The notes below the pieces were generated by a model. That model was not told the origin of the DNA. It saw only the letters and a list, made by a program, of their open reading frames with translations, and ran no database searches. A program made the position numbers and the translations under genes. Positions 6,481 through 50,059 of a stretch of DNA of 64,000 nucleotides are shown piece by piece (the first letter of the stretch is position 1; the number at the start of each line of letters is the position of its first letter). The stretch comes from Anthoceros angustus (Eukaryota; Plantae; Anthocerotophyta): positions 558,001-622,000 of the forward strand of contig MU008152.1 in assembly GCA_010909165.1 (NCBI GenBank), given 5' to 3'.

Positions 6481-6846
6481 ACCTACTCCATCCTCCAAAG
6501 ATCAAGGTACTTTTTCCTACCACGATCTACCAAAGACCAAGGACCTTTTTGCTTATAAAACTAAGTGCCATAATTAGTTTGTAAATCCCAAAGGTTATGA
6601 CTCTATTGGAGACTCGAAGTCCCGTTTCTACCGTCCTTCTACCGACTGTCTATGACGACTCGAGTCGCGCTCCTGCTACATTGGTCAGAAACCATCTACC
6701 TACCTTTTACCTAAATGACCAAACTTTTTTACTCCACAACAATCAAGGTTGCATCTTCTTAGCCAAGAGTGCCCTAAAAATAACAAACTTAAAAGTCATG
6801 CATCTTCTGGAAAGTATCTTCTAGAAAGCCAAAAGTAAAGGGCAAG

Positions 6847-7935: not shown

Positions 7936-8988
7936 AATTGGAGCCACGTGAGCCTCTGCTTTGCGAGAGGGGCCATCGCCACGCGCAGAGGTCTGCAAGT
8001 GGATTGGGCAACCTTCGCCTTCGATTCCCAGTTCAGAGGCGGATACCCCCAGGACAGGACAAGATCCACCTGTGAGCACGGCTGCTTCTGCTTCTGCTCC
8101 CAGGCAAGGAGGAGGAGGGGCCGCCCGGTCTGCTCCCGATTTGGTGCAGGAGGCAACATGCGAGGAGAACCGCGGGATGGAGGTACCGGAGGTGGATTAT
8201 GAGACCCGGCCTCAGGGCATGCTTGTCTGTGTGGGCCAGGAGGAAGCGCGCGCCGCTGAGCCCAGGTCTGGATGTGACTCCAAGTTGTACAATGGAGTGA
8301 GCTGCAGCCACGAGAGGAAGAATAGGCTGTACAGCGAGCTCCGAAACTGGGTAAAGCATTTCCGGATGATTGCGCAGGAGGGTACAGAGGGCATGGCGCA
8401 GGAAAGTAGCCCGGGTGAGAATTCACAGGTTGCTCGGGATCTGGAATCGAGCCATCGTGAGCTTGGCCCGGTTAGACCGAGTCCACAGCTGGACTTGAAA
8501 GACGAAACGCACATGGATATCTCCGGTGGCCAGGAATCAGCTTGCTTGCCCCTGCCACAGCCCTGGACAAGCCCCAGGTTTGAGGATATTAGGCCCTTGA
8601 CAAGCAGGCCTAGCGTATAGCATCCAAAGCCTCGTCCTCAGCCTGCGTGCCCAGCTGCTTCTCGTGGTGAGTTAATTCCGTTGGACCCATGATTCACAAA
8701 TTTCAGGGCATGCTTAACTTGTATGTGCTTAATTGTCTGATCTGTGATGCTTACTCATGTGTGTACATATGTAGAGGGCATGGTGAAGGGAAGTGGTCGC
8801 CCGGGTGTGAAATCACAGGCTGCTCAGGATATGGAAGCGAGGAATCGTGAGCCTGACCCGGCTGGACCGAGTCCACTGGTGGACTCGAACGAAGAAATGC
8901 AGGTGGATGTCCCCTGTGGCAAGGAATCCGATTGCTTGGCCCTGGCACAGTTCAGGGTCCCGGGTCTGAGGATATCAGGCCCCTGGCA
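7936..8988 (+). pseudogene. Unknown gene family X, C-terminal half, with intron 8667-8774
   Basis: Inverted homologue of 14370-15380 (RGAIATRRGLQVDWATFA). GT..AG intron at the same position as in the 14.1-15.7 kb copy. Premature stop at 8618-8620. Confidence 0.8.
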
Positions 8989-14121: not shown

Positions 14122-15707
14122 CTAGGGTCTCCCCTCAGACCTGCAATTAACACCAAAAGAATCTCGTTTCAGTTCATGACATGCTGCGCAGTGCTTGCAC
14201 TTGAGGAGCAAAGTAGATGACATATGTGAATCCATGGAACAAAACCAACTCACCGGTAGAAGCAGCGATGCACGCAGGTTTAGGACGAGACTTCGGAGGC
14301 TGTACGTGTACAGCTTGCGTCCCTCCTGGCTCAGTTCCACACGAAGCTTTAGAGGCTGTACGCTAGGCCTGCTTGCCAGGGGCCTGATATGCTCAGACCC
14401 GGGGTCCCTGAACTGTGCCAGGGCCAAGCAACCGGATTCCGTGCCACAAGAGACATCCACCTGCATTTCTTCATTCGAGTCCACCTGTGGACTCGGTCCA
14501 GCCGGGCCAGGCTCATAATCCCTCGCTTCCAGATCCTGAGCAGCCTGTAATTTCACATCCGGGCCACTTCCCTTCGCTATGCCCTCTACATCTGTACACA
14601 CCCGAGTAAGCATCAGACAAATAAGCAAAGACAAGCATGCCCTGAAATTTGTGGATCTATGGAAAACGGAATCAACTTACCGCGAGAAGGAGCTGGATAC
14701 GTAGGTTGAGGACGAGACCCCGGACTTCGCCTGCTTGCCAGGGGCCTGATATCCTCAAGCCCGGGGTCTGTGGACTGTGGCAGGGCCAAGCAAGCGGATT
14801 CCTGGCCACAGGAAACATCCAACTGCATTTCTTCATTCAAGTCCAGCTGTGGACGCGATCCAACCGGGCCCGGCTCCAAATCCTGATCAGCCTGTGAATT
14901 CTCGCCAGGGCCACTTCCCTGCGCCATGCCGTCTGTACTCACCTGCGTAAGCATCCGGTTAGGCTTTGGCCACTTTGCGAGGACATTGCTATAGAGCCTA
15001 TTCATCCTCTCTTGGATGTGGCTCAGTCCCATGTACATCTGGGAGTAAGATCCAGACCCGGGCTCGTCCGCGCGCGCTTCCTCCTGGCCCGCACAGACAA
15101 GCATGCCCTGATGCCGGCTCTCATGCTCCACCTCCATCGCGCGATTCTCCTCAAAAGTCGCCTCCCGCGCCACATCGGGAGCATTACGGGCGACCTCTCC
15201 TTCCCCTGGCCTGGGAGCAGAGGCAGAAGCAGCTGTCCTCACAGAGTAGACATGTCTCCTCCTCTGGGCCAATCTGCCTATGAACTGGGCCTCGAAGGCG
15301 AAGCTTGCCCAGTCCACTTGGAAACCTCTGCGCGTGGCGATGGCGCCTTTGGCAAAGGTGAGGCTCGCCTGGCTCCAATTCACTCCTCTGTGAGGATATA
15401 CCTTGTGTGTCAGGGTTTTCAGAAATGGGACCTCTATTGTGCGAGCCCATGTGAGGTGGATGGGACCCTTGCCCACCCAGTCGAACTCGTCCGCCAAGTC
15501 CTGGTGGCTAACAATTCCATCCCTGCCATGGAGGTTTCTTGGATCAAGGCCCTGGTCGCTGAGGCCCATGCTGCAGAAGTGGGCCCTTTCGAGCACAGGA
15601 CCCCTCCTCCTGGCGTCACCTCCAGCCACCGCCATCTCCATCTCCATCGCCATCGCCTGCTGCTGCTCTTGCTGCTGCTGCTGCTGCTGCTGCATTGCTC
15701 GCGCCAT
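14122..15707 (-). CDS. Unknown family X protein, predicted 496 aa, 2 exons (15707-14681 and 14585-14122)
   Basis: ATG at 15707 (MARAMQQQ). GT-AG intron 14586-14680 splices in frame, giving 1491 nt. It joins ORF-track entries 14613..15866 and 14122..14634. Poly-Q N-terminus, conserved core, duplicated acidic module. Confidence 0.6.
15655..15695 (-). repeat. (CAG)n microsatellite encoding poly-Gln
   Basis: tgctgctcttgctgctgctgctgctgctgctgc on the + strand. Confidence 0.9.
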
Positions 15708-19850: not shown

Positions 19851-20856
19851 TGTTTTACACGTGTGATCTGCCTCTAAATCCGTTGTCAACAAGCTGCTTC
19901 TCTGAACACAAAATACCCCACACACACCTATCGCTGATCACTCTCACTTTGCAACCATCTACCAAAACAACTAAGTCAACATTTTCCCCCGTTCACACCA
20001 TCATCACCCTTTTGGTTGTCCTACTGACGTTTTTCCAAAGCTGTAACATAGGCTGATCAGTCCCTATTAATGAGCAAGCGAAAACAACGACTTCACCGTG
20101 TTTGATACTCCCTCAAACTGTCTTCACTAGTCATTGTGGTAGGTTTGCCTCGGTCACCCGGAGCTCGCCTCGGTGGCCACACTTATCCCACGGTCGTTGA
20201 ATACGTAGGTTCGATCCCAAGAGATTTGGTTCGGATTGTTTGCGAGTCGTTCCTCTCACTCTCTCACTCTCGTCATTCTGCCCCGGTCTACTTGTCCTCA
20301 GTGTGGGCAACAAAGCGGTGTTATGCGTTTGGGTTATCGGCCGGCGCGCCTCCACGCCTTCCGTGATTCCCTCCACCTCAACACTCTCCTCCGCCAACTA
20401 CAACGATCAATTCACTCTACAACGACACACCCATAGCCAACCTCTTCACCATTCTCAAAAGAAACATAGCTCACAGACCACACATACGGACTCACTTCAT
20501 TCGATCCCAAATCTAACTCTACCATAGCGTTCGCGGTTGCGCGCCTCCCTTGCGGCTGGCACAGGGGTGGACTAGCTGGGTATTTCTCTCGGGCCGATTG
20601 TCAGGTACGAACACCGACGCGAGCGTAGTCGGCCGATCACCTGCGAGGCCACCCAAAACACAAAGCACATCCAACAACAATCTTTCACGAGAGGAGGAGC
20701 TGCGTTGAGCGAACCCACCGCGAGGGCCTCCGGCCGAACCCACCTTCGCCTTCTCGTCGCTTGGCGGTCAGCTGCACACACACACAAAGGGATGCGCCGG
20801 AGGCGAAGAATGCATGACAAAGCAAGGTCCGTGTTTATTCATTCTTCCACCCTCCC

Positions 20857-20863
20857 TTTTATA
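20857..20863 (-). promoter_or_regulatory. TATA box of the LTR genomic-RNA promoter
   Basis: cctataaaagggagg on the minus strand. The same motif is at ~31590 and a variant at ~42342. Confidence 0.65.
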
Positions 20864-21005
20864 GGTGGGGAGTCGGTAGCCACTCGTGCTAGTTTAATGC
20901 TAGGCGACTTGCCAAGTCCAACAATAGGACTCTTTGCCACAGTTCGTCCTCTCGGCTCGATCCGGCTCACCTTGACGAATATCCTGTCATCTATCACCGC
21001 CACTC

Positions 21006-23652
21006 TTAAATACTCACACTTCCCAAGGTGTGCACCACTTGGGACAAAACGTCCTCTTGAAAAGGTCCCACCGACATCCCACGTCACGCTTTTGTTCGCC
21101 TCAGCCTTCAATGTCTTCCCTTCGATGGGTCGCTTAGCCTTGCCCACCTCCGAGTCTTCTCGGGACTATGCACAGTAGCCTCACGTGCCATCTGGTAGGT
21201 CTTCCCTTTGTGGTAGGAGGTTCCATTCCTCCTACTCGTTCATCCTCGATGGGTTCCTCCCCACTGCTCGCCTTCTCGTCTTCTTGGTAGGCGGTTCGTC
21301 TCCTACCTCTTTGGATCTTGCTATGGGGTACCTTCCCTCACTGGTTTCAGACCGGAGGTACCCTTCCTTCCGGGGTCACCTCCTCCTCTTCAACAGTTCC
21401 TACCTGAGTAGGAACTTTGGTAGGTACCATCCTACCATCAGTCTCTTCCTCCCCGCTTGATAGCTCCACCGTCTCGGGAGGTTCTACTGGCGTCGCCGTA
21501 GGTGCTTCTTGACTCGCTCGCTCGGCTATGTCCAGCCCAGCCTGGCTTTCCTTGTACCAACTCAAAGTTTGACCTCCGTGCCATTCCACTTGGCGTCGAG
21601 CGGTGAGGTGCATTTCTTCGTCTTCCTCCATGGCGTTCCTCAATCGCTTCGGAGGTTGTTGTAGTAGGTCGCCACCCTACCACTCTCCTTCTTTGTCGTC
21701 CATGATGCGGACCCTTAGTGGGATGGCCTTTTCGTCCCACCGATTTGTCACTCCTACCAATGCGGCCTCTTTCTCCACTACCGCTCTCCAACTCCGGGCA
21801 AGCCTCCCAATCTCCTTATCTTTCTCCATGGCTTCCATCGCCATGCGTTTCACTATGCGTGATCGCTCTCTTTGCTCCCTCGAATGACCAAGACCCTCCA
21901 AAGATCGTTGGGCCATCAAAACCTCCTTCCGTTCCTTGCCTCCGTTTCATAGGCGTGGGTAAGGTCGTCGGCCTTCTTCGTTCTTTGCTCCAAAAGTTCT
22001 CTCGTGTCTGAAGCTCCTCTTTGTGACCCTTAGTCACATTGTCCCATCCTTGTCGTTCCTTCACCAAGGTATTTTCCCTTGTAATGCTCCTTCCGTTGCT
22101 CCATGGCAACTAACTTCTTCGTAGGAGGTCCTTCTCGTCTTCAAGGTCCCACCGTAGGTCCTCCTCTTGGCTGATTTTGCCTCCTCCTTGCTGCGTTCGA
22201 TGTGTCCTACCCTTGCTAGGGTAGCTTCCAACTTCTTCTCGCCTCCTTCTGGCCCAACTCCTCGCCCTCTTGGCTGATTTTGCCTCTGTCCTAAGACACG
22301 GTCAATCATTTCCCACATTCACCAACTTGGTGGTCATCTGTCGCTCTTTGGCGGATCTAGCACGGAGTGTTGCTTCTCGGAGGTGGTTTTGAGCTCCTCT
22401 CAATTTCTTCTCGGCATCCTCCGGCTCCTTTCGTAGGTCTCGAGTTCAACGAACTTGGTCACCTCCGACACGGTCCACTAGGGCGTCCATAGATCCTGCG
22501 CCCACTTCCTTCGCCTCCTCCTTTGGTCGTAGGAACATGCTCATAACCTCCTCCTCCTCCTCCTGGTGCGTAGGTCACCAACGCTCCTCGGCGTTCTTCT
22601 CGTCACTGCCTCAAGTCTTGTTACTACTTCTTGGTGAGGTAAAGCTCCTACCGTAGGTCCTCCGTCCTCCACAGGTCCCTCTGGTAGGGGTTCACTCCTA
22701 CCCGGTGTTGTCGGCCTTCCAATCCTCAACCCTCGGTAGGTGGTCTCGTATCCTTTCCTCCTTCCTCCGTAGGAGGTGCTTCTATGGCCTTCTTCCCTTT
22801 CTCTTGTTGGGTTCCCGATCCACGAGGCCTCATGTTGGTTCGGGCGTGGCGGTCTCTTGCCCGGGGCCTCTGTCCTGTCTCTTCATCCTCCGGGGCCGAT
22901 GGCTCTCCTTCCGCTACCCTCACGAGTAGCTTCTATCTTGGCTTCTTCCAGCTCGTCAGCTGTAAGAACCTCCTCCCTCTGATATAGGTGTACGAGGAAG
23001 GTAGAGACAAAGCGATTCTTGCTCCTCCATCACCAAATGGTTTGATGAACCTTTGTTCATCTGAATGGTGGCCCAATCCACCAACTTCCCCGAGACATCT
23101 CATACATCATCATTAAATGGGAATTTCCAGTCGTCTTCCTCGCCCGCATTGGTCAGCCATATCTTGGCGAATAAATTCCACTTCCGCTCCTTGAACAAAG
23201 AGATCCTCCAGCCATTGCCTTGCGACCATACTTCCTCCTTTGGTCGTAGGAACATGCTCATAACCTCCTCGGGATCGATTCTTGGAGGCCCAGGCTGGAA
23301 TGATCCCTCCCTTGTGGGCTTCCGGTATCAAATCGTATCCACAATGCCGTACCTTCCACATCCCGGGATGACTTGATTGTCGCATCCTCGGGCGGCCGTC
23401 GCCTTGGTCACTCTCATTCGTCGCGCACACTCGAACCAAGGCGGGGCTCGCAAAGTGCCACCGGTACCAAGTACAGCCATTCCATCTTCATCTCGGGCGT
23501 GGCTCGAGCGCCTCAAATCTCGAGGTGAAATTTGGGCGGCCTACACTCGAACTCGAATTGGGTGTTTCTTACCTTTTCCCTTGTGGGCGGTGTGGCGGCG
23601 GAGGTTTCCTCCCGTGGGAGTACCCCGTTCCCGTCCTCACTATCTTTACCAT
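21006..23652 (-). pseudogene. LTR-internal ORF, copy 1 (~880 codons, frameshifted in this assembly)
   Basis: ATG (MVKIVRT) at 23652 and TAA at 21006. The fragments tile collinearly with copies 2 and 3. Confidence 0.7.
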
Positions 23653-24260
23653 CCGCAGGGGAGCACACACAAGGATAGCAAAATTGGAGAGATTGGAGTA
23701 ATCTATCGGGCTAAGAGAGTGGAGAGCAAAGAGGTGGTGGTTTGGGTGAGAGGCAGCAAGGGGAGCTTCCGCGCTCCTCGGCGCCTCAACGCAACCACTA
23801 AGAGGTGGCCTTGGCCCCTTCAATCTCCCCTCCAGAACTTCTCCACCTTGCTCGCCTTTTGGCATATATAGCCATGGCCTCTCCTTCCTCGGCGCCTCTA
23901 CACGCCTCCGCTCGAGCACCTCCACTCGCGCCTTGCGGATCCCCCTCCGAACTCCTTTCCGAATCGCTCATGCCCGCTAGCTCGTGTGCCTCGCGCTCCT
24001 CGGCGCCTTGAGTTCGCTCCTTGACTGCCTTGCGCCTGTCGGCAAGGCCCGCTCACTGCGCCTTCCTTCTTGGCGAATAAATTCCACTTCCGCTCCTCGG
24101 CCGCCCGGCTGCGGTTCGCTGAAGGCGCCCGTTCAAAACCACAGCTAACGAGTTTGCGGTACATACCGTCGCCTTAATGGCGCTCCTCACGATGGGCGCC
24201 ACGTGTCCGGTTCAAAACTCCTGTAGCCATTTTCCATCTACAACTTAACTAGCCCTTTTG

Positions 24261-24270
24261 GCATATATAG
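24261..24270 (-). promoter_or_regulatory. Second TATA-like box upstream of the LTR ORF
   Basis: ggctatatatgcc on the minus strand about 610 nt before the ATG. Conserved at ~34981 and ~45727, with an analogue at 6371. Confidence 0.5.
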
Positions 24271-24556
24271 CCATGCGAACCTAAATAATTGAAGGCCAAG
24301 GAACTTCTATCCCGAATATTCCTACTCCCCATGGTCCAAGGAACTTTCGGAACCTATCATGCCTATATATGCTTCTATCTACCCATACTTTCTACCCGAT
24401 CGAACCTCCTGACGCCGATTCGATTAAGTCCGAACTCCCTCGGACGTCCTACCATCTTCCTACTGTTTCTATCGACCTACCTACCTACACACGAACCACT
24501 ATTCATCCTTCGTCGGTCTCTCCCGTCTTGGGTGACCAAAATTCTTCGTTCCACAT

Positions 24557-24570
24557 GCTCCTCTCCCCAT
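24557..24570 (-). other. Polypurine tract
   Basis: atggggagaggagca immediately precedes TGTGG on the minus strand, directly after the end of integrase. Confidence 0.85.
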
Positions 24571-27500
24571 TTGTTTGCGCTCATAAACATCCTGTGTAAA
24601 GTACTTCTTGATCTTCCACCCATTCACTCTGGTAGGAAGTAGTTCCCCGATCTTCCAAGCGCATTTTCATAGTACAACCCGCATAGGCCCCATCCATCTC
24701 GGCGTAGCTTCCGGAAAATCTAAATACCTACTATCGTAAAGGAGCACCAAGTCTCCCGCTACTCGGTCTGGTGAAGCCTCCCATCGTGCCTCTCCTTCCT
24801 CTGTTCTGTACTGTGTCTCCTCTAAGGCATCGTCCTAGTTTCCTCATGCCTATAAATTCTTCCAACTGGCTTGTTCACTATCTTCCACCGTCATTCGCTC
24901 ATCTTCCATAATTCTATCGTTGGTACCTCAAATTCGGGCATTACGGGTGACATACCGTATGTCGAGATAATCTGATGTCTTCTTGTGGTCACCTTCTCCA
25001 TGATCCACGAAAGCCCATAGCAGTGTAGCTTGGTATCGATCATACATATGGGAGATCACTTTGTCAAAATGTTGCATAGTAACCCATTTGTCTTCTCCGT
25101 GAGTCCGTTGGCTTTCGGGTTGTAAGGCGTAGTCTTCTGTCGAATGTTGAAATAAGCGATCACGGACTCGATTATCTTTGTTGAAATCGTCCCTCGATCG
25201 CTAACAAGTTCCGGTGGGCATCCATACCTTGTGATAATCCGTTCAAACAAAAACTTGGCGGCGGTGGGCGCATCATCCTTCCTTCCGCCTCGACCATCTT
25301 TGTGCGATGTCATGCAACGAATGTCTTGTCGCTGGTCCGGTGGTGGTCGAATAGGTCCCACAAAATCAATTCCCCATTTTCAAAAGGTGCGGTGGTAGGA
25401 TGTCGTTAGAGGCCTTGGTCGTGGGCCTCCCGTTCGTGACAAGCATCACAACTCGATGAATAACCATACATCTCGATACATTGTATCCCACCAAAACCGG
25501 TTAGAATCTTCTTTGTTGTGATTGTGGCGGAATAGTGTCCTCCTGCTTCCTCGTGTGCAAGGCTTCTATCACCATGGCTTTCTCATCCCCTCAAACATCT
25601 TGAATCACCTCATCATTTAATTTGTACAATACTCCCTTTGATGCAATATGGTGCCGCCTGTATGAATACGAACTCCTTCCTTTGATAAATCCACCGCAAC
25701 TCCCCATGCTCTAAATACCTCGACCTCGGCGTTGATGAGTGTCGGACACGCACGCCCTCCACTTCTTCTTACAGTGCGGGGTTTACGTCGCGGGTTGCGT
25801 AGTCCTTGGTCCTGTGACGTCCCCCTCCGGTTCTCAGTCTGCTCGCGATATCCGGAGGAGTCCCCGAGCTCCGCCGTTTTCTCAGTCCGTCCTTCCTGCA
25901 GTGCCTCCTGCCGTCTTTCGATCATGCTTTCGGCCACGGCTACCAACTCCTCATCTGGGAACTTATCGTTCGGTGGTGGCCTTCCTTCATTCGTAGTCGA
26001 GAAATGAAGTCGGCGTTCACATGTTGCTTCCCCGTGTTTCCACCTCATAATCGAATTCACGTATGCCATCCGCGATTCGTCCGGATAGATCGGGTTTGTT
26101 TACCAAGTACTTCAATGCGAAATGGTCCACATGGAACACAACTTTGCAAGCCGAGATAGTGTCGAAATTTCTTGCGAGAATAGATGATGCCAAGAGCTTC
26201 TCTTTCGATCGTGGAGTAGTTCCGTTACGCATCCGAAAGTTGGCGTGCATAGAAGATCGGCCTATCATGCTTCTTTCCATCACGTTGACTCGGGATGGCC
26301 CCTATGGCATGTGATACATCCACAAAGACATGAAAAGGTTCTTCCCGGTTGGGGGTTGCAATCGGTGCCCCGCCAAGCTCTTTTCAAACTTAGCGCTTCA
26401 CGCTCGGTCCATCAAAAGGAACATCTTTCTTGATGGTTGCGTGAGAGGTGCGCCTTCTTTGCAAAATCAATGATGAATCTCTGTAGTATCCCACAAGCGA
26501 TGAAGGCTCGAACTTGCCTTACCGTTTCCGGAGCATCCATCTCTGTGATGACTACGACCTTTTCCCTATCCACCTCCAAACCTCGCTTCGAAACACGATG
26601 TGCCAGCAGTGATTCCTTCTATCATTCCGAAATAACATTTGCTTGGGTGCAACTTCAAATTGGTTTCTCTACACATAACCTTTGGCGAAGATGTCCCAAG
26701 TGCTGCTTCTCTTCCCAAACACACAAAAGTCATCCGAAATACTTCCATGAATTTCCTCGGTACTCTCGGAAAATGGTATTCACTACTCTGAAGGTGGCGG
26801 GGCATTGCAAAGACCAAAGGGTAATTTGGCATATGCAAACGTCCCCAATCGATGGTAGCGTTGTTTTGTCTGATCTTCCTTTCTCGAGTGATCGATTGTA
26901 TCCACGAATACCCGTCTAAGCTGTACATCTCATGCCTGCGGGTGTCCAATACACTATCCATAAGCGGCAAGGGTGATGGTCTTTCTTAGTTGCCTCATTC
27001 AACTTCACGAAATCTGACCCGAACTTTCCCTGTTGCTTCTTAGGCACAATCACAATCGGTGCCACCCATTCGCTTAGTCTGGGATAGATTACTCCGCCTC
27101 CGAATCTTGATCCAATTGCTCCTTCACCACTAGAGAATACTTTGGATTGAGTCGTCTTGCTTGATCCTCACGTCGCTCCTTCCTTCAAGTCGATTCGGTG
27201 CACTCCCAACTCCTCAGTATCGGTCATTTCGGTTACCTTGAGCGAAACAATCTATGTATTCCAACAACGGTGATGGAGTTGTTTCTTCTCTTTGTTCGCG
27301 ATGCTCGCATACCATGACTTTCTTCCGGGGCCAGCTCCATTTCCTCTAAGGCTCGGATCCCTTTGGTCCGTCCGGACAACTTCCTAGTGCGTTCCTTCAT
27401 CCGGAAAATCTTCATTGTCGGCTTTCTTATCCAAGGATGCTTTCTCCGTCCCTTCTCCATTGTACTCGATTCTTCTTCTATCTCGACTTGGAAGCGTCAA

Positions 27501-30500
27501 CAAGCGGGACAATACGTTTGATCATCGATCGAAGAATTTTCCTCTCCTCTGTCTCCTCCCCAACCTCGGAGGTGTACTCCTCGGTGAGGGATTAGTTTCC
27601 CCTTCATAGGTTTCCTTGCTCCACTCACGAGGCATGAGCCAGCGGCATGCCCTTGAGCGATCTGAAATTTTCCTTCTTCCCCAATCAAGGCTTTTCTGCC
27701 GTATAGCCATGGCCTCCCTATCAACACTTGATACCCCGGTCGGGTGGTCGCATGACCACATAAGTCAAAGGAAAACAATGCCTCCAATGTTAGTGGGTAC
27801 CCGATACAGTCGCCGCGTCGATCCGCCATTCGAAGAATGGTGCGTGTCCTCGAACTTGGTGTATCCTAGTTTGCTGGCCGTTTCTTCCATCATCAGTTAA
27901 CACGAGCCGGAGTCGATGGTACCGCCTTATCAAGCATCCGTTCACTTGACCGATATTTCACGGCACCCAAATCCATGAGTTCCACAACTCGTACATCCGT
28001 AGTCGTTTACGGTTTTACGTATGAGTCCCTTTCATCGCTTCTCGCATCATCGTCGATACTTGGGGTTGTCGGACAAGAGTTGTCGAAATGTCACAAGGAA
28101 TTCTTGATCCAGCAGATTGCCGGTGACCTTCTCGGTGAGAGGGTCTTCTTTTCCTCAGCCGATTACTTCTTCTTGGTAACCCTCCATCTTTTGTCATCAC
28201 TCCTCTGGACCCATGGTTTCTGGGGGTGCATGTTTCTTCGCCTGCTGAGTGAGTTTCCGTAATTCGGCATCGAGCATGCCTGCCACCTCCTGGCTGATGT
28301 CAGGTGCAAATTCGAAGCCTTTGGACCGCCCTCCCTCAGCGGCCCCGGTCTCGTGGCCGTTTCTTCATCTCTCGATGTCGCTTCCTCTGGCATTCTTCTT
28401 TTCTTTCGCTCGGATTCCGCCCATCTCCGCCGAACTTCCAATTTCCGAGCATTCCCCTTGTCGTCGAGGTGTCGTCCCTCCTTCCGTCTTGACCGAGTGG
28501 CGACGCGTGCGACCAACTCGTCTTCTCCGGAGATATACCCGGAGTCCTCTTCCTGTACTTCCAACCATTCGCCTTCTTGCTCCTCTCCCCAGCGTTCGCG
28601 TCTTCTACTTCCACTGTCTAGGGGTGGGCACGAGAGGCATCTGGGTTTGGTGGAATCTCCTCTGTCACCCGGGTTAGCGAATCGTACCCCTGGCCTGGCG
28701 AGAATGGTCTTGGGCCCCGTACATCTTGCATCTCCCGCTATATGACTGGCGCCTTGCAGACTGTGAAGAGTGTACCCAATCATGGTTACGGACATGCATT
28801 CGCATAATGATCAGGCGCCACGTTGTAGCAATGGCGATACATTGGGGTCGAGAGGATTCCGCCATTGATTCGCGATTTTGCCTTGGACCATACCTCATCC
28901 CTTTGGGTGATGGGTTGATAGGTGGCTCTCATGGATTGAGGCGGTCGAGCTCTGTCACGCATCGATACACCTCCTCTCACGAATAGTATGGGTCTAGATC
29001 GTACTCCACCGATTGACCCATCGTGTCTTGAGACGGCATTCACGTGCGTATGGCTGGTGATGACAATTGCTACAAAAGACTTGCGCCGTAGGGAAGGAGA
29101 TCGTCGCGTCGGTCGATTCTTGACTAATTTGATCTCGATGTCACTTCCTCTTGCCACTCGCTTTCTTCCTCTTGCCACTCGCTTTCTTCTTCTTGGTGGC
29201 GACCTTCCATTCGTTTCCCTTTTCCCTTCTCTGAAACCTTCGTGGCGTTTCTCTTGTCTCTCTCCTTCTTCTTCAGCAAATGTTCCAAGTCTTTTTTCAC
29301 TCGCTTATGATGTGCTTCTTCCGATTCGCTATCATCCGTCCCAGATGTTGAATTCTCTTCAGATGATGATGGTTCCGACTGAGTGTCTTCGGACGTCGAT
29401 TCTTCTGACGAACTTGAAGACTGATGTCTCTTTCCTTTCTTCCTCTTGCCACTCGCTTTCTTCCGTCTTCTCCTCCCCAGTAGAGCGGCCTCCCATGCTT
29501 CGGCTGCTCGAATGCCTTCCTCCAAGGTATCATTGCCCCTGCGGCAGTGAATCTCCATCTTTCGTGGTAGTCCAGACGAACCAATCCAACGCTTGTTCTT
29601 CCGAATCGCTTGTGATTCTCCTCCGTGTTGTCCACTCGGAGGTATCTTCTCCAGCGTAAAACCGTTCCACATAATCGAGCAAGGATTCTTTCTTCTTTCG
29701 GAGTCACGAAGTTTTGTTACATGGGTAGTGTGGCTCAAACCAGCGAATAAGGAAATCAGCTCGCAACAGCCAAGCGGTGGGTGGGGTAGAGAACTTCGGC
29801 ATACCATTGTTGCGCGGTCCTGTGATCTGGAAAAATTCGTACCCGATCTGTCGAGGAATCCTCGATGTTAGCCCTCGAGATGGATTCGAAAAGTTTTACA
29901 AAACTTTCGGCATCGATGTCGTCCTCCTTCTTGGATCCAAATTTGGGATACGGCTGCCTTGTGTGCGGGTGATGAGGGCTTGCTCCTCCTGTACTGGTTC
30001 CTCCCGCTCCACTCATGGCTATGGGTAAAGGTGTCAGTACTGTCGAGAACCGGGTCGTCACCTGCCTGAGTAAGTGAGAAACTCGGGCAGCTCTTGCTCG
30101 TGGGTTGTGGACTTGGTTGTGTCTTCGCTCTGATCCCACAATTCTTGCTTCTTCTCTTGCCACTCGCTTTCTTCCTCAAGCTTCCGCTCGAGCCAAATGA
30201 TCGAGATATCGTCGATTGTAAGTGTCCCAATCCCTTGCTCCCTGTTGGTCGGCGATCAACGCCGCCCGTATGGCTGCCTCCCGAGCCCTCTCGGTAACAA
30301 ACTCAGCGTGTCGCTCGTTGACTCCCCTCCGGAGATGATCTCTGTCAAACAAGGCGTTTTCTTCGTCAGGCTCTGAGTCCGAAAAATCTTCTAAGGTGTC
30401 AGCGTCAGAAGAGGATGCAGGTGCGTTTCGGACGGGTGGTAATGGCAGGACCACCCCTACTTCCCCTTCAGAGTCCTTCACACCGTTCGTGGGTGATACT

Positions 30501-30600
30501 AACTCCACGGTCGTGACTTCTCGAAGGGTTCGCAAAGAAATGAGCTCGGCCTCCGTTACTGGTTCCGCTCTGTCTTCTTGATGTTCCAAAGTACCACGGC
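24570..30600 (-). pseudogene. gag-pol: gag-pol, copy 1 (gag, Zn knuckle, protease, RT, RNase H, integrase), heavily frameshifted
   Basis: YPKFGSKKEDDIDAESFVKLFE (gag), CYN..DHYANACP (~28800), TIDSGS (~27915), LDGYS and FMEVF (RT), HVDHFALKYLVNKPDLSGRIA (RH), WGIDFVGP, LVSDRG and NGLTEKTN (IN). Confidence 0.9.
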
Positions 30601-30880
30601 TCCCCGTCCGTGGAGTAGGCGCTGTCGGACCTTTCTCCGCAAAACAATCGAGACAACCTAGCGTGGTGGTCGTTGTTGCGTACTTTCTTCCTCGGTGAGC
30701 TTGCCCGCTGACCGCTTACCTCCACTCTAGCCGCGATGGCTCGGCTAACCTCTCGGGATTGCCTCTATCCGTCGATACTCATCCCTTCCGCCGCCCTTTC
30801 ACGAGTTGAAAGGGGATGATTCGCAATGCCCGTTTACTCCCTCTGTCATCATTCACTCACACACAATCCTCAAGCGGCAA

Positions 30881-30895
30881 ATCCCGACAGCGCCA
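30881..30895 (-). other. Primer-binding site TGGCGCTGTCGGGAT, 4 nt from the LTR
   Basis: atcccgacagcgcca-aaaa-tgtgg on +. The second copy at 41640-41655 reads cccgacagcagcgcca. The priming tRNA was not identified. Confidence 0.8.
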
Positions 30896-31739
30896 AAAAT
30901 GTGGTAGGTTTGCCTCGGTCACCCCGAGCTCGCCTCGGTGGCCACACTTATCCCACTCGTTGAATACGAGGTTCGATCCCAAGAGATTTGGTTCGGATTG
31001 TTTGCAGTCGTTCCTCTCACTCTCTCACTCTCGTCATTCCGCCTTGTCTACTTGTCCTCGATGTGGGCAACAAAGCGGTGTTATGCGTTTTTTTGGGTTA
31101 TCTGGCGCGCTCCACGCCTTCGATTCCCTCCACCTCAACACTCTCTCCGCCAACTACAACGATCAATTCACTCTACAACGACACACCCATAGCCAACCTC
31201 TTCACCATTCTCAAAAGAAACATAGCTCACGGACCACCACATACTCACTTCATTCGATCCCCAAATCTAACTCTACCATAGCGTTCGCGGTTTCGCCTCC
31301 CTTGCGGCTGGCACAGGGTGACTAGGGTATTTCTCTCGGGCGATTGCACGAACACGGCGCGGCGTAGTCGGCGCCGATCCTGCAGGGCCACCCAGAAACA
31401 CAAAGCACATCCAACAACAATCTTTCACGAGAGGAGCTGCGTTGGCGAACCCACCGCGAGGGCCTCGAGAACCCCACCCTTCGCCTTCTCGTCGCTTGGC
31501 GGGCGGTCAGCACACACACAAAGGGATGCGGAGGCGAAGAATGCATGACAAAGCAAGGTCGGTGTTTATTCATTCTTCCACCCTCCCTTTTATAGGTGGG
31601 GAGTCGAGCCACTCGTGCTAGTTTAATGCTAGGCGACTTGCCAAGTCCAACAATAGGACTCTTGTCGGCCTTCTTCCCTTGTAATGCTCCTTCCGCTACC
31701 CTCACCTTGACCGAATATCCTATCTGTCTATCGCCACTC

Positions 31740-34376
31740 TTAAATACTCACACTTCCCAAGGTGTGCACCACTTGGGACAAAACGTCCTCTTGAAAAGGT
31801 CTCTGACATCCTCGTTCTGCTTTTGTTAGCCCTCGCTTCAATGTCTTCCCTTGATGGGTCGCTTAGCCTTGCCCACCTCCGAGTCTTCTCGGGACTATGC
31901 ACAGTAGCACGCCTCGTCGGCCCCCGGTGGTAGGTCTTGTGGTAGGAGGTTCCATTCCTCCTACTCGTTCATCCTCGATGGGTTCCTCCCTCAGTTCTCG
32001 TCTTCTTGGTAGGCGGTTCGTCTCCTACCTCTGTTTGGATCTTGCTATGGGGTACCTTCCTCCACGGCTGGTTTCGTGACCGGAGGTACCCTTCCTTGGT
32101 CACCTCCTCCTCTTCAGCAGTTCCTACGAGTAGGAACTTTGGTAGGTACCATCCTACCATCGGTCTCTTCCTCCCGCTTGATAGCTCCACCGTCTCGGAG
32201 GTTCTCTGGCGTCGCCGTAGGTGCTTCTTGACTCGCTCGCTCGGCTATGTCCGACTGCTTTCCTTGTACCAACTCAAAGTTTGACCTCGGTTTTCATTCC
32301 ACTTCCTCCTTCCTCCGTAGGAGGTGCTTCTATGGCCTTCTTCGTCTTCCTCACCGTAGCGTTCCTCAATCGCTTCTAGGAGGTTGTTGTAGTAGGTCGC
32401 CACCCTACCACTCTCCTTCTTTTGTCGTCCATGATGCGGACCCTTAGTGGGATGGCCTTTTCGTCCGGCACGATTTGTCACTCCTACCAATGCGGCCTCT
32501 TTCTCCACTACCGCTCTCCAACTCCGAAAGCCTCCCAATCTCCTTATCTTTCTCCATGGCTTCCATCGCCATGCGTTTCACTATGGTCGCTCTACTTTGC
32601 TCCTCGAATGACCAAGACCCTCCAAAGATCGTTGGGCCATCAAAACTTCCTTCCGCGGTTCCTTGCCTCCGTTTCATAGGCGTGGGTAAGGTCGTCGGCC
32701 TTCTTCGTTCTTTGCTCCAAAAGTTCTCTCGTGTCTGAGCTCCTCTTTGTGACCCTTAGTCACATTGTCCCATCCTTGTCGTTCCTTCACCAAGCGCCGT
32801 ATTTTCCCTTGTAATGCTCCTTCCGTTGCTCCATGGTTCTTCTTCGTAGGAGGTCCTTCGTCTTCAAGGTCCCGGGGCCTTGCTAGGGTAGCTTCCAACT
32901 TTCGCCTCCTCCTTGCTGCGTTCGATGTGTCCTACCCTTGCTAGGGTAGCTTCCAACTTTCGCCTCCTTCTGGCGGTTTCCAACTCCTCCTCTTGGCTGA
33001 TTTTGCCTCTGTCCTAAGACACAGTCAATCATTTCCCACATTCACCAACTTGGTGGTCATCTGTCGCTCTTTGGCGGATCTAGCACGGAGTGTTGCTTCT
33101 CGGAGGTGGTTTTGAGCTCCTCTCAATTTCTTCTCGGCATCCTCCGGCTCCTTTTCGTAGGTCTCGAGTTCGGCCACGAACTTGGTCACCTCCGACACGG
33201 TCCACTAGGGCGTCCATAGATCCTGCGCCCACTTCCTCCTCCTCCCTCTTGGCTGATTTTGCCTCCTCCTCCTCCTCCTCCTCCTCCTGGTGCGTAGGTC
33301 ACCAACGCCTCGGCGTTCTTCTCTCACTGCCTCAAGTCTTGTTACTACTTCTTGGTGGTCACCTCCTCCTTCCTCCTTCCTCCGTAGGAGGTCCTTCTTC
33401 GTAGGAGGTTGTTGTAGTAGGTCGCCACCCTACCACGGTGTTGTCGGCCTTCCAATCCTCAACCCTCGGTAGGTGGTCTCGTATCCTTTCCTCCTTCCTC
33501 CGTAGGAGGTGCTTCTATGGCCTTCTTCCCTTTCTCTTGTTGGGTTCCCGATCACGAGGCCTCATGTTGGTTCGCGGGCGTGGCGGTCTCTTGCCCGGGG
33601 CCTCTGTCTCTTCATCCTGGGGCGATGGCTCTCCTTCCGCTACCCTCACGAGTAGCTTCTATCTTGGCTTCTTCCAGCTCTCGTGTAAGAACCTCCTCCC
33701 TCGATATAGGTGTACGAGGAAGGTAGAGACAAAGCGATTCTTGCTCCCTCCATCACCAAATGGTTTTATGCAACCCTTTGTTCATACTGAATGGTGGCCC
33801 AATCCACCAACTTCCCAGACATCTCATACATCATCATTAAATGGGAATTTCCAGTCGTCTTCCTCGCGCCGCGTTAGTCCAGCCATATCTTGGCGAATAA
33901 ATTCCACTTCCGCTCCTTGAACAAAGAGATCCTCCAGCCATTGCCTTGCGACCATACTTCCTCCTTTGGTCGTAGGAACATGCTCATAACCTCCTCGGGA
34001 TCGATTCTTGGAGGCTGAAGCGAATGATCCCTCCCTTGTGGGCTTCCGGTATCAAATCGTATCCACGGAAATGCCGTACCTTCCACATCCCGGGATGACT
34101 TGATTGTCGCATCCTCCAGGGCGGCCGTCGCCTTGGTCACTCTCATTCGTCGCGCACACTCCACAGACAAGGCGGCTGAAAGTGCCACCGGTACCAAATC
34201 AGCCATTCCATCTTCATCTCGGGCGTGGCTCAGGCGCCTCAAATCTCGAGGTGAAATTTGGGCGGCCTACACTCGAACTCGGGGTGGGTGTTTCTTACCT
34301 TTTCCCTTTGTGGGCGGTGTGGCGGAGGTTTCCTCCCGTGGGAGTACCCCGTTCCCGTCCTCACTATCTTTACCAT
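31740..34376 (-). pseudogene. LTR-internal ORF, copy 2
   Basis: ATG at 34376 and TAA at 31740 (2637 nt), with internal frameshifts. Confidence 0.65.
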
Positions 34377-35016
34377 CCGCAGGGGGAGCACACACAAGGA
34401 TAGCAAAATTGGAGAGATTGGAGTAATCTATCGGCTAAGAGAGTGGAGAGCAAAGAGGTGGTGGTTTGGGTGAGGCATGACAGGGGAGACCCGCGCTCCT
34501 CGGCCTCGCCTCAACGCAACCACTAAGAGGTGGCCTTGGCCCCTTCAATCTCCCTCCAGAACTTCTCCACCTTGCTCGCCTTTTGGCGTCTAGCCTGCTC
34601 ACCCCTCGGCGCCTCTACAATCGCCTCCGCTCGAGCACCTCCACTCGCGCGCCTTGGATCCCCTCCGAACTCCTTCCGAATCGCTCATGCCCCGGCTAGC
34701 TCGCTGATGGCCGCCTCGCGCTCCTCGGCGTTCTTCTCCACCTTGCTCGCCTTGGTCACCTCCTCCTCCTTCCTCCTTCCTCCTTTGGTCGTAGGAACAT
34801 GCTCATAACCTCCTCCTCCCTCGGCGCCTTGACTGCGGTTCGCTGAAGGCGCCCGTTCAAAACCACAGCTAACGAGTTGCGGTACATGCAACCGCCTTAA
34901 TGGCGCTCCTCCCGATGGGCGCCGTGTCGGTTCAAAACTCCTGTAGCCATTTTCCATCTACAACTTAACTAGCCCTTTTGGCATATATAGCCATGCAGAA
35001 CCTAAATAATTGAAGG

Positions 35017-35726
35017 CCAAGGAACTTCCTATCCCGAATATTCCTACTCCCCATGGTCCAAGGAACTTCCTATCCCGAATATTCCTACTCCCCATGGTCC
35101 AAGGAACTTCCTATCCCGAATATTCCTACTCCCCATGGTCCAAGGAACTTCCTATCCCGAATATTCCTACTCCCCATGGTCCAAGGAACTTCCTATCCCG
35201 AATATTCCTACTCCCCATGGTCCAAGGAACTTCCTATCCCGAATATTCCTACTCCCCATGGTCCAAGGAACTTCCTATCCCGAATATTCCTACTCCCCAT
35301 GGTCCAAGGAACTTCCTATCCCGAATATTCCTACTCCCCATGGTCCAAGGAACTTCCTATCCCGAATATTCCTACTCCCCATGGTCCAAGGAACTTCCTA
35401 TCCCGAATATTCCTACTCCCCATGGTCCAAGGAACTTCCTATCCCGAATATTCCTACTCCCCATGGTCCAAGGAACTTCCTATCCCGAATATTCCTACTC
35501 CCCATGGTCCAAGGAACTTCCTATCCCGAATATTCCTACTCCCCATGGTCCAAGGAACTTCCTATCCCGAATATTCCTACTCCCCATGGTCCAAGGAACT
35601 TCCTATCCCGAATATTCCTACTCCCCATGGTCCAAGGAACTTCCTATCCCGAATATTCCTACTCCCCATGGTCCAAGGAACTTCCTATCCCGAATATTCC
35701 TACTCCCCATGGTCCAAGGAACTTCC
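35017..35726. repeat. Perfect 41-bp tandem array, 17 copies plus a partial copy
   Basis: ccaaggaacttcctatcccgaatattcctactccccatggt x17 (35017-35713). Only about 1.3 copies occur at 24295 and 45762. Confidence 0.97.
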
Positions 35727-35759
35727 TCCTTCCTCCTTCCTTGGGTGACCAAAATTCTT

Positions 35760-38700
35760 CCAACCAACTTGTTCACTATCTTCCACCGTCATTCGCTCAT
35801 CTTCCATAATTCTATCGTTGGTACCTCAAATTCGGGCATTACGGGTGACATAGTATATCGAGATAATCTGATGTCTTCTTGTGGTCACCTTCTCCATGAT
35901 CTGAAAGCCCATAGCAGTGTAGCTTGGTATCCCCAGTCATACATATGAGGCACTTTTATCAAAATGTTGCATAGTAACCCATTTGTCTTCTCCGTGAGTC
36001 CGTTGGCTTCGGGTTGTAAGGCGTAGTCTTCTGTCGAATGTTGAAATAAGCGATCCACAGACTCGATTATCTTTGTTGAAATCGTCCCTCGATCGCTAAC
36101 AAGTTCCGGTGGGCATCCATACCTTGTGATAATCCGTTCAAACAAAAACTTGGCGGCGGTGGGCGCATCATCCTTCCTGTCTGCCTCGACCATCTTTGTG
36201 CGATGTCTGCAGCACTGTATCCGTCGGTTGGTGGTCGAATAGGTCCCACAAAATCAATTCCCCATTTTCAAAAGGTGCGGTGGTAGGATGTCGTTAGAGA
36301 AGGGTCGTCGGCGTGGGCCTCCCGTTCGTGACAAGCATCACAACTCGATGAATAACCATACATCTCTATACATGTATCACCAAAACCTCGGTTAGAATCT
36401 TCTTTGTTGTGATTGTGGCGGAATAGTGTCCTCCTGCTTCCTCGTGTGTGCAAGGCTTCTATCACCATGGCTTTCTCATCCCCTCAAACATCTTGAATCA
36501 CCTCATCCCCAATTTGTACAATACTCCCTTGCGATGCAATATGGTGCCATACATGTATGAATAACTCCTTCCTTGATAATCCACGGCAACTCCCCATGCT
36601 CTAAATACCTCGACCTCGGCGTTGATGAGTGTCGGACACGCCGCCCCTCACTGCTTCTCTTACGGTCACGGGGTTTACGTCGCGTTGCGTAGTCCTTGGT
36701 CTGTGGCGTCCCCTCCGGTTCTCGATCTCGCGATATCCGGAGAGTCCCAGCTCGCCGTTTCTCGATCCGTCCTTCTGCGGTGCCTCCCGCGTCTTTCGAT
36801 CATGCTTTCGTACGGCTACCAACTCCTCATCCGGGAACTTATCGTTCGGTGGTGACGCTTCCCTTCATTCGTGGTAGAAATGAAGTCGTTCACATGTTGC
36901 TTCAGCCCGTGTTTCCACCTCATAATAATTCCAGAATGCTTGATCCATCCGCGATTCGTCCGGATAGATCGGGTTTGTTCACCAAGTACTTCAATGCGAA
37001 ATGGTCCACATGGAACACAACTTTGCAAGCCGAGATAGTGTCGAAATTTCTTGCGAGAATAGATGATGCCAAGCTTCTCTTTCGATCGTGGAGTAGTTCC
37101 GTTACGCATCCGAAAGTTGGCGTCTGCATAGAAGATCGGCCTATCATGCTTCTTTCCATCACGTTGACTCGGGATGGCCCCTATGGCATAGTGATACATC
37201 CACAAAGACATGAAAAGGTTCTTCCCGGTTGGGGGTTGCAACATCGGTGCCCCAAGCTCTTTTCAAACTTAGGGCGCTTCACCGGCCGTCCTCAAAAGGA
37301 ACATCTTTCTTGAGTTGCGTGAGAGGTCGCCTTCTTTGCAAAATCAATGATGAATCTCTGTAGTATCCCACTAAGCCGATGAAGGCTCGAACTTGCCTTA
37401 CCGTTTGGAGCATCCATCTCGTGATGACTACGACCTTTTCCTATCCACCTCAAACCTCGCTTGAAACACGATGTGCAGGATTCCTTGTCATTCGAAATAA
37501 CATTTGCTTGGGTGCAACTTCAAATTGGTTTCTCTACATACGTAAACCTTTTGGCGAAGATGTCCCAAGTCGCTTCTCTTCCCAAACACACAAAAGTCAT
37601 CCGAAATACTTCCATGAATTTCCTCGGTACTCTCGGAAAATGGTATTCACTACTCTACGAAGGTGGCGGGGCATTGCAAAGACCAAAGGGTAATTTGGCA
37701 TATGCGTCCCCAATCGATGGTAACGTTGTTTTGTCTGATCTTCCTTTCTCGAGTGATCGATTGTATCCACGAATACCCGTCTAAGCACATCTCATGCCTG
37801 CGACCGTGTCCAATACACTATCCATAAGCGGCAAGGGTGATGGTCTTTCTTAGTTGCCTCATTCAACTTCACGAAATCTGAGACCGAACTTTCCCTGCTT
37901 CTTAGGCACAATCACAATCGGTGCCACCCATTCGCTTGTGTACGGATAGATTACTCCGCCTCCGGAATCTTGATCCAATTGCTCCTTCACCACTAGAATA
38001 CTTTGGATTGAGTCGACATGCTTGATCCTCACGGGTCGCTCCTTCCTTCAAGTCGATTCGGTGCACTCCCAACTCCTCGGTATCGGTCATTTCGGTTACC
38101 TTGAGCGCGAAACAATCTATGTATTCCAACAACTGATGGAGTTGTTTCTTCTCTTTGTTCGCGGATGCACATACCATGACTTCTTCCGAGGGGCCAGCTC
38201 CATTTCCTCTAAGGCTCGGATCCTTTGGTCCGTCCGGACAACTTCCGTAATGCGTTCCTTCATCCGGAAAATCTTCATTGTCGGCTTTCTTTATCCAAGG
38301 ATGCTTCTCCGTCCCTTCTCCATTGTACTCGATTCTTCTTCTATCTCGACTTGGAAGCGTCAACAAGCAGCAGGACAATACGTTTGATCATCGATCGAAG
38401 AATTTTCCTTGCTCCTCGTCTTCTCCTCCCCAACCTCGGAGGTGTACTCCTCGGTGAGGATTCCGTTTCCCCTTCATAGGTTTCCTTGCTCCGGCTCACG
38501 AGGCATGAGCCAGCGGCATGCCCTTGAGCGATCTGAAAGTAATTTCCTTCTTCCCAATCAAGCGGCTTTCTTGCCGTATAGCCATGGCCTCCCTATCAAC
38601 ACTTGATACCCCGGGTCGGACTGGTCGCATGACCACATAAGTCAAAGGAAAACAATGCCTCCAATGTTAGTGGGTATCGCAAGTACCCCGGTCAGTGTGG

Positions 38701-49990: not shown

Positions 49991-50059
49991 GACATGCCAC
50001 CCTCATCTTGGGAGCAGGTGCAGAGGAGAAGTCATTCACTTCAGCCACGATCTTAAGGA

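Follow-up and report, generated by a model that had tools for sequence, protein, structure and literature searches.

A coding region inside the long terminal repeats of a likely Athila-like Ty3/Gypsy element in Anthoceros angustus

A 64,000-bp stretch of the Anthoceros angustus assembly (the window; GCA_010909165.1, contig MU008152.1, positions 558,001 to 622,000) was found to contain a Ty3/Gypsy retrotransposon whose long terminal repeats (LTRs), which are normally non-coding, each carry a coding region of about 2.6 kb. Sequence comparison with a second, diverged family indicates that this coding region is real and under purifying selection. We favour, at a probability of about 55%, a Ty3/Gypsy element, likely Athila-like, with an accessory gene of approximately 880 codons in U3, likely with its own promoter and with a product predicted to be a soluble nuclear helper of the element's own expression, acting in trans. 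A wider proposal falls just short of even odds: that a plant Ty3/Gypsy clade moved a complete gene of about 880 codons and of a new family, together with promoter and poly(A) signal, into U3, so that each insertion would hold two copies and solo LTRs would be independent trans-acting expression units (transactivator or silencing suppressor). More tentative still is the assignment of the product as a transactivator or anti-silencing factor.

The element is made up of the following features:

20130 to 20134, no strand: target-site duplication (TSD) GTCAT, left
20135 to 24555, minus strand: LTR A, the 3' LTR, 4421 bp, with TGTGG..CCACA ends
21006 to 23652, minus strand: LTR-borne coding region, copy A, with ATG at 23652 and likely stop at 21006; many small indels as assembled
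24558 to 24568, minus strand: polypurine tract (PPT), adjoining the integrase end
24569 to 30899, minus strand: internal region 1, with gag, protease, RT, RNase H and integrase pieces in Ty3/Gypsy order, frameshifted as assembled
30880 to 30895, minus strand: primer binding site (PBS) past LTR B, starting TGGCGCTG; its leading 6 nt match the Athila tRNA-Asp PBS
30900 to 35760, minus strand: LTR B, the shared middle LTR, with coding region at 31740-34376; its outer end holds 17 identical 41-bp units and is without terminal bases, PPT and integrase end
35761 to 41660, minus strand: internal region 2, with PBS at ~41641-41656
41661 to 46025, minus strand: LTR C, the 5' LTR, with coding region at 42487-45141
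46026 to 46030, no strand: target-site duplication GTCAT, right

These form an LTR-internal-LTR-internal-LTR array on the minus strand, flanked as a whole by the GTCAT duplication, with the junctions GTCAT/TGTGG at 20130-20139 on the left and CCACA/GTCAT at 46021-46030 on the right. The three LTR copies (20135-24555, 30900-~35760 and 41661-46025) show 88% pairwise identity, the outer end of the middle copy being damaged, and the element size is 15 kb. The purine tract GGGGAGAGGAG at 24558-24568 lies 2 nt off the start of LTR A, and the PBS-like sequence sits 4 nt past both LTR B and LTR C. Domain motifs read by eye gave the order protease-RT-RNase H-integrase on the minus strand. The RT-RNase H of internal region 1 was placed by tblastn with a Pfam-positive fragment located at 845-1639 (E 2e-20); Pfam itself gave no match on the fragments of internal region 1, which are heavily broken, and Rfam gave none across 20135-46100. 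With TG..CA ends, TSD, PBS, PPT and this domain order, the array has the makeup of a Ty3/Gypsy LTR retrotransposon. The LTR limits given in the preliminary description (TGTGG..CCACA ends, GTCAT duplication, PPT after integrase and PBS at the other end) hold, and the PPT proposed there is the purine tract described above.

A 5-bp TSD fits the Athila clade (OTA, non-Tat); Phygy and Selgy have a TSD of 4 bp. The leading 6 nt of the PBS (7 of the first 8) match the FIDEL PBS (PMC2844528) before the two diverge, in a comparison of one element with another. As far as can be judged from the heavily broken fragments, there is no room for additional domains between protease and RT, or past integrase. 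The 5-bp TSD, the tRNA-Asp-like PBS and the lack of room for an aRH or a chromodomain are Athila traits, and on these the element is likely of an Athila-like lineage.

The ATG at 23652, the TAA at 21006 and a span of 2637-2655 nt in three LTRs, as described earlier, were all recovered; the three spans are 2647, 2637 and 2655 nt, with equivalents of both codons in each copy. The coding region lies wholly inside the LTR, as had been claimed, since both ends of the element carry it, bounded by integrase-type ends and a target duplication, and the second family has the same arrangement. In LTR C the gene (45141-42487) is inside the LTR (46025-41661) with the PBS beyond, placing it between LTR start and PBS, and a check of the three copies for a second LTR start downstream of the gene revealed none. 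The ORF of about 880 codons is not present as assembled: none of the three copies has an open 880-codon frame, each of the nine sense frames contains 16-36 stops, and uninterrupted reading reaches at most 125, 130 and 304 codons. An 880-aa protein is unreadable from the window sequence. The broken frames are probably assembly noise, since gag-pol is equally broken and most of the differences between short-read contigs and the window are small indels. Copies A and C differ by 19.1 gaps per kb in the gene, compared to 28.5 for the two internal regions against each other, so that the breaks are not gene-specific. A contig from run X1, which may be the same sample as the window, shows 13 gaps and no substitution along 24328-24553, and its end lies 2 nt from the LTR edge. 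Contig depth, when summed, is greater across the LTR gene than across gag-pol, a figure that does not measure copy number.

The second family is represented in the window by these features, listed with the part of LTR A that was compared to it:

845 to 1639, minus strand: open RT-RNase H fragment of a related family, on the same strand as the second-family LTR
5251 to 6738, minus strand: partial LTR of a second, diverged family, with start TGTGGAGT at 6738 and TATA-like box at 6379
5251 to 5670, minus strand: start of the homologous gene, a 139-codon open frame from the equivalent ATG; homologous part 5281-5670
23280 to 23652, minus strand: stretch of LTR A selected versus the second family, comprising the basic N-terminal stretch and the start of the globular domain; dN/dS 0.07

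The second-family LTR has no PPT ahead of its start and is cut off by a 48/99-bp satellite. Its gene begins 1068 nt inside the LTR start, where 20 of 30 nt agree with the start of LTR A. Alignment of the 5' LTR regions of the two families scores 252 versus 194±10 for 200 shuffles. In run X1 another high-depth repeat starts exactly at 6739. The fragment at 845-1639, whose closest solved relative is the Ty3 RT, may belong to the same element. ACAAT/TG at 232 and 2484 was considered as a TSD partner of this LTR and rejected as chance, there being no LTR-end similarity at either position.

The homologue noted earlier at 5251-5670 is indeed open from the equivalent ATG. Over 72 codons it shares 79% amino-acid identity with the LTR gene, with no stops, and the substitutions fall 8, 7 and 36 at codon positions 1, 2 and 3 (pN 0.11, pS 0.66, Fisher p 4.8e-14). 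The resulting dN/dS of 0.07, a check suggested by the preliminary description, is far below 1, and is only rough because pS is close to saturation. The other five frames contain 1-6 stops and give dN/dS values of 1.6-3.0, with the exception of the antisense shadow frame at 0.20. Single-copy comparison repeats the result; for copy A, 33 synonymous and 16 non-synonymous codon changes were found among 81 codons. It is on this open 139-codon frame, its identity and its dN/dS that the gene is taken as real. The selection covers the first ~130 codons, the extent of the diverged homologue. X1 variants on the second-family homologue fall at the third codon position in 5 of the 10 listed, which is uninformative.

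A weaker coding signal, on the sense strand only and with modest statistics, spans most of the 2.6 kb. Scored on blocks that the three copies share without any difference, the gene reached a coding z of 2.3 in its first third, 2.9 in the middle one and 2.4 in the last in the sense direction, compared to at most 1.0 antisense, 0.3 and 0.9 in the LTR parts outside the gene, and 3.8 and 3.2 in the pol and gag controls. All 30 such blocks of at least 30 nt in the gene are open in some sense frame, where 3.1 would be expected to be closed (P 0.017), as are 12 of 13 outside it; the final 200 nt ahead of the stop contain no three-copy block of at least 30 nt wholly within the gene. With blocks common to any two copies, P was 0.054 for the whole gene, the N-terminal part was without signal (period-3 z -0.1), and 3 of 29 gene blocks were closed in all frames, compared to 3 of 30 for pol.

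It is unlikely, though the best of the alternatives, that the coding region is real without being a single 880-codon frame, and is instead either divided between a shorter N-terminal gene and another ORF or spliced. No copy is open, selection is seen for codons 1-130 only, and the stop is not fixed since all three frames run open for some distance near the 3' end; a TG-rich motif directly ahead of the ATG, common to the second family, could be a splice signal. Against this, the coding signal is about equal in the three thirds and confined to a single strand, base composition is strongly skewed throughout, and the spans are nearly equal.

Across 12 sense frames no 19-residue window exceeds a Kyte-Doolittle value of 1.41, which indicates no membrane segment and agrees with the earlier claim that a transmembrane helix is lacking; T makes up only 15-16% of the sense strand in the three copies. 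The coding region is predicted to specify a basic stretch and charged helical segments. Pfam searches with the 130-aa open homologue and five fragments matched no family at E values up to 10; the domain is incomplete in them, and HMMER filters lose weak matches. No homologue was found for the 75-aa fragment of copy A among longer proteins, for the 130-aa homologue among longer and near-length proteins, or in metagenome and viral contig scans, and no PDB sequence scored below E 0.45. HMMER searches of 1.84 billion representatives with the 75-aa fragment only gave two matches, both repeat proteins, which were rejected. A single-sequence model was poor (pLDDT 47), and fold searches with it were uninformative (best Z 4.0, best E 0.14). 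Its predicted order of secondary structure, helix-helix-strand-strand, is reminiscent of the ATHILA ORF-1, Transposase_32, PMD and Transposase_28 domains. The protein would have a basic stretch at its N-terminus and a single globular domain, along with acidic linkers and charged helical segments, a plan resembling the domain-plus-coiled-coil accessory proteins of Athila/Tat elements.

Such a protein could instead act at the particle or integration step, as a Gag partner, in nuclear import or in tethering the integration complex, rather than in transcription or silencing. The charged helical segments, the basic stretch and the apparent absence of a chromodomain after integrase are in keeping with this, and a part in nuclear import has been suggested for the products of extra ORFs (PMC7264820). 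A separate conserved promoter in each LTR would, however, better suit an early trans-acting factor than a Gag-coupled protein, and we consider this role slightly less likely than a split or spliced gene.

Three motifs bear on the placement of the gene:

24263 to 24269, minus strand: upstream TATA-like box, likely LTR-gene promoter, in 3/3 copies and the second family (6379)
20857 to 20863, minus strand: TATAAAA, likely genomic-RNA promoter (putative role), in 3/3 copies
20834 to 20839, minus strand: AATAAA, 24 nt past the TATA start, with a TG-rich tract behind it; likely poly(A) signal (putative role)

The position of the AATAAA likely implies a very short R, and from the TATA and AATAAA positions the best reading, as previously suggested, is that the coding region is in U3. 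The proposed promoter of the gene is this conserved upstream box (TATATAT at 24269 in all three copies), a motif-based assignment. The leader between box and ATG has 6-8 upstream ATGs per copy. Repeats of CCTCGGCG occur in the leader and often in other parts of the element; the second family lacks them. Run X2, only guessed to be RNA, barely touches the locus.

Were the box at 24269 the main promoter, the gene would lie in a 3.4-kb R or in U5, and the genomic RNA would carry it as its first cistron; 5' extra ORFs of this sort are known from Ogre and Tekay elements. The distance of ~290 nt between the LTR start and the box would make a U3 of ordinary length, and the second family has kept the box. 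This arrangement is improbable, since the AATAAA at 20839 would cut the RNA ahead of the PBS, a canonical TATAAAA stands just ahead of that AATAAA in 3/3 copies, and minus-strand strong-stop DNA would exceed 4 kb.

With the gene in U3, its transcript would start ~30 nt past the box at 24269, run through a 600-nt leader and the gene, and end at the AATAAA at 20839. The genomic RNA would start ~30 nt past the TATA at 20863, at or just beyond the AATAAA, and would therefore escape early cleavage in the 5' LTR, leaving an R of only ~20 nt. Primed at the purine tract behind integrase, plus-strand synthesis would carry the gene and its promoter over into both LTRs. As to origin, a sense 3' extra ORF of the ordinary sort may have entered U3 as priming shifted to a purine tract upstream of it.

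Athila elements likewise are non-chromoviruses with a 5-bp TSD and a tRNA-Asp-like PBS, and the 15 kb found here is within their range. Their sense 3' extra ORFs (env-like, or ATHILA ORF-1 PF03078 and Transposase_32 PF20167) share with the LTR gene its orientation and its position downstream of integrase. Here, however, the PPT precedes the gene, which is therefore duplicated in both LTRs; the gene has no Pfam match and lacks the transmembrane segment of an env-like protein; and it appears to have its own promoter, whereas env-like ORFs are described as spliced. For Athila4 and Calypso, PMC2829016 reports an additional PPT between pol and env, in the linker. Grande gene23 and the Retand/Ogre accessory ORFs (Transposase_28 PF04195, plant mobile domain PF10536, coiled coil) are also comparable: the accessory gene of Grande has a promoter of its own and encodes a nuclear protein, of which the promoter is likely and the nuclear product predicted here, and the domain-plus-coiled-coil plan (PMC4408406) is the one that we propose. 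Their ORFs are internal, mostly antisense and part of Tat elements with an aRH, whereas the gene described here has no domain match and its element apparently no room for an aRH.

MMTV sag, lentiviral nef and foamy-virus ORFs likewise place a protein-coding frame on the U3 side of an LTR, according to PMC2664473; there, retroviral LTRs are ~1.3 kb or less and nef merely reaches into U3, whereas the 4.4-kb retrotransposon LTR described here encloses the whole of a 2.6-kb coding region and a promoter-like box. The retroviral genes have no sequence link to this one. Plant LTRs of similar size, 1.9-6.5 kb in Ogre and over 3.2 kb in Retrosat2, indicate that such repeats can be copied; in the accounts consulted, their extra ORFs are internal or upstream of gag-pol, with no mention of a gene borne by the LTR. 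A literature search found no gene-in-LTR layout for retrotransposons. If the U3 reading is correct, the layout is retrovirus-like on a larger scale than sag or nef, and each LTR carries its own copy of a likely helper gene. Solo-LTR formation is the chief route by which genomes delete retrotransposon genes; an LTR-borne accessory gene would outlast it, and 'dead' solo LTRs could still make a trans-acting protein. As a self-contained cassette assayable apart from gag-pol, it would allow a clean test of the role of a plant extra-ORF protein. Since annotation masks LTRs as non-coding, LTR genes would be routinely missed.

An assembly artefact, in which the true LTR is short, the tandem array is joined wrongly and the gene is a normal internal 3' ORF, might be suspected from the visibly noisy assembly and corrupted middle LTR end. 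It is largely refuted and very improbable: the outermost copy starts TGTGG beside the TSD and has the gene ahead of its PBS, the PPT comes before the gene, the second-family gene lies behind an LTR start without a PPT, and the two internal regions differ like real copies (across 1719 sites, 11 isolated substitutions, of which 10 are transitions). Within each LTR copy a 38-nt stretch is present twice and looks pasted from elsewhere in the LTR, and at 23857-23878, in copy A only, the TATA-like box is duplicated.

Self-comparison of the window revealed a 4.4-kb repeat present three times (20135-24555, 30900 to approximately 35760, and 41661-46025) with two 6-kb internal regions between the copies, 88% identical. 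The outer edges of the array read GTCAT/TGTGG on the left and CCACA/GTCAT on the right, giving a 5-bp target site duplication (TSD) and perfect 5-bp inverted ends; 20135-46025 is a three-LTR tandem element, oriented on the minus strand, within a single TSD. The 3' LTR (20135-24555) is preceded, at a distance of 2 nt, by a purine tract (24558-24568, minus strand) that abuts the integrase end, and a primer binding site (PBS)-like TGGCGCTG lies 4 nt past the middle and 5' LTRs (minus strand), so that all of the LTR limits given in the preliminary description (TGTGG/CCACA ends, GTCAT TSD, PPT after integrase, and PBS) were recovered by self-comparison and sequence reading. Pieces of gag, protease, RT, RNase H and integrase follow the Ty3/Gypsy order (motifs by eye; RT-RNase H by tblastn). 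In the outermost 5' LTR, a putative coding region of about 880 codons (the LTR gene; ATG 23652 to TAA 21006, minus strand, in the 3' LTR) sits between the LTR start and the PBS, and is therefore within the LTR by definition. The two internal regions look like real copies, since they differ by 11 isolated substitutions over 1719 sites, 10 of them transitions, and may perhaps have originated by unequal recombination. The middle LTR contains 17 identical 41-bp units (35017-35760), and at a 9-nt microhomology its sequence jumps past the start of the LTR, the PPT and the end of integrase; this skip was not found among the contig joints of X1, a short-read DNA run compared with the window, and the units and skip are probably a read-correction artefact.

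A homologue of the LTR gene was found at 5670-5251 (minus strand) in a second family, represented by a truncated, diverged LTR (5251-6738, minus strand). Counted from the equivalent ATG, its frame stays open for 139 codons before the left satellite array (4675-5254) truncates it. Of 130 aligned codons, 72 were kept (gap-free context, at least two copies agreeing); substitutions at codon positions 1, 2 and 3 numbered 8, 7 and 36, with 79% amino-acid identity and a dN/dS of 0.07 (p 4.8e-14), a rough ratio since synonymous sites are near saturation. This comparison had been proposed as a test in the preliminary description, and the result is far from a ratio of about 1. The same codon-position bias was obtained with each LTR copy taken singly, and the other frames contain stops. 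Judged by these codons, the 5' end of the LTR gene is genuine, and the two families are old, with the frame retained in both.

Coding signal along the 2.6-kb gene was scored as the best frame against dinucleotide shuffles, using blocks identical in all three copies. Sense-strand z values were 2.3, 2.9 and 2.4 for successive thirds of the gene, compared with at most 1.0 for the antisense strand and 0.3 and 0.9 for LTR sequence outside the gene; controls on more sequence gave 3.8 (pol) and 3.2 (gag). All 30 three-copy blocks of at least 30 nt had an open sense frame, where 3.1 closed were expected (P 0.017). Blocks shared by two copies had earlier given a weaker result (P 0.054, with 3 of 29 closed), and the N-terminal part of the gene showed no period-3 signal in that test. 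Support for coding beyond the 5' end is moderate, with the stop position approximate, and a single 880-codon frame is likely.

Of the gene of about 880 codons originally described, the selected, LTR-borne coding region stood while the open frame did not: every one of the nine sense frames across the three copies contains 16-36 stops. The ATG-to-TAA spans were 2647, 2637 and 2655 nt, in agreement with the earlier range of 2637-2655 nt. The frame damage looks technical, because gaps far outnumber substitutions (approximately 120-135 gaps between copies, as against 2-4 isolated substitutions per 1100-1360 clean sites, or 0.2-0.3%), gag-pol is equally broken (28.5 gaps/kb between its two regions, against 19.1/kb in the LTR gene), and X1 contigs differ from the window mostly by gaps (for example, no substitutions and 13 gaps over 24328-24553). 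These contigs gave 325 indel places over 11.2 kb, a measure of disagreement with the window rather than of an independent population, as X1 is possibly from the same sample. Certain stretches resemble pastes from other parts of the LTR.

The layout is common to both families. The second-family ATG lies 1068 nt past TGTGGAGT (6738), a sequence sharing 20 of 30 nt with the beginning of the 3' LTR; the two regions align with a score of 252, against 194±10 for shuffles, and share a TATATATGC box. No purine tract was found ahead of 6738, so the second-family copy is a 5' or solo LTR, and in X1 a different, deep repeat starts at 6739, as expected for an insertion edge at 6738/6739. A non-coding motif upstream of the ATG, CTATCCTTGTGTGTGCT (sense strand; 23653-23680 and 5671-5700), is identical in both families despite the near saturation of synonymous sites; it is possibly a splice or translation signal. 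From sequence comparison, an LTR-borne, selected coding region is present in two diverged families.

Judged by its features, the element appears closer to Athila than to Tat, Phygy or Selgy: the TSD is 5 bp long, the PBS agrees with the tRNA-Asp PBS over the first 6 nt, and there seems to be no room for an aRH or chromodomain. The types of the neighbouring elements suggest that the host is probably a non-seed plant or a streptophyte alga. In the literature searched, covered mostly at title and abstract level, no LTR-borne gene was described for a retrotransposon; element lists in the supplements of PMC6317226 could include LTR-overlapping ORFs. In the portions available, extra ORFs of plant elements are placed either internally or ahead of gag-pol (PMC7264820, PMC6317226, PMC3485330, PMC6431247, PMC11963269, PMC11728184, PMC4408406, PMC2844528, PMC2829016), and LTR ORFs in retroviruses (PMC2664473).

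An AATAAA lies 24 nt past TATAAAA (20863), the likely genomic-RNA promoter, and is followed by a TG-rich tract; both motifs are present in all three copies. In a scheme based on motifs, genomic RNA would start approximately 30 nt past TATAAAA, at or barely beyond AATAAA, and would thereby escape cleavage in the 5' LTR. The LTR gene likely has its own transcript, which would run from the TATA-like box at 24269 and terminate at the same AATAAA, giving a U3 of about 3.7 kb, a very short R and a U5 of about 0.7 kb. Athila4 and Calypso are described, in the part of the source available, as having an extra PPT in the linker ahead of the env-like ORF (PMC2829016); priming at such a PPT would convert an accessory region into U3, a possible origin of the arrangement seen here.

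The product likely has a functional role. Its first 130 residues were modelled, at low confidence, as two helices followed by two strands, a basic KGKKHP stretch is retained in both families, and later blocks are acidic or charged-helical. No membrane segment was found, in keeping with the earlier remark that no transmembrane helix was visible. Pfam, sequence, metagenome/viral contig, PDB and fold searches with fragments and the 130-aa homologue gave no protein family, homologue or fold; the N-terminus may resemble those of ATHILA ORF-1, Transposase_32 and PMD.

Neighbouring features of the window were as follows.
3969-4568, plus strand: open 199-codon frame
4675-5254 and 50058-50356, opposite orientations, 45 kb apart: 48/99-bp satellite
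7936-8988 and 14374-15380: inverted repeat pair, 80% identical, with long open frames
46669-48907, minus strand: Gypsy element with integrase ending in a PHD finger (Pfam PF00628, E 3e-7; rve, E 4e-10)
53393-54124, minus strand: open 243-codon frame, partly repeated at 62407-63812
57000-58000: 73% GC island containing a 180-bp imperfect palindrome (57193-57370)

The PHD-finger element is inserted near the 5' LTR. Neither the long open frames of the inverted repeat pair (no family at threshold) nor the 243-codon frame had a Pfam match; the latter is reminiscent of the N-terminal part of Crypton/DUF3504-type recombinases. The 199-codon frame resembles the terminal, restriction-like endonuclease portion of CRE/R2-type LINEs.
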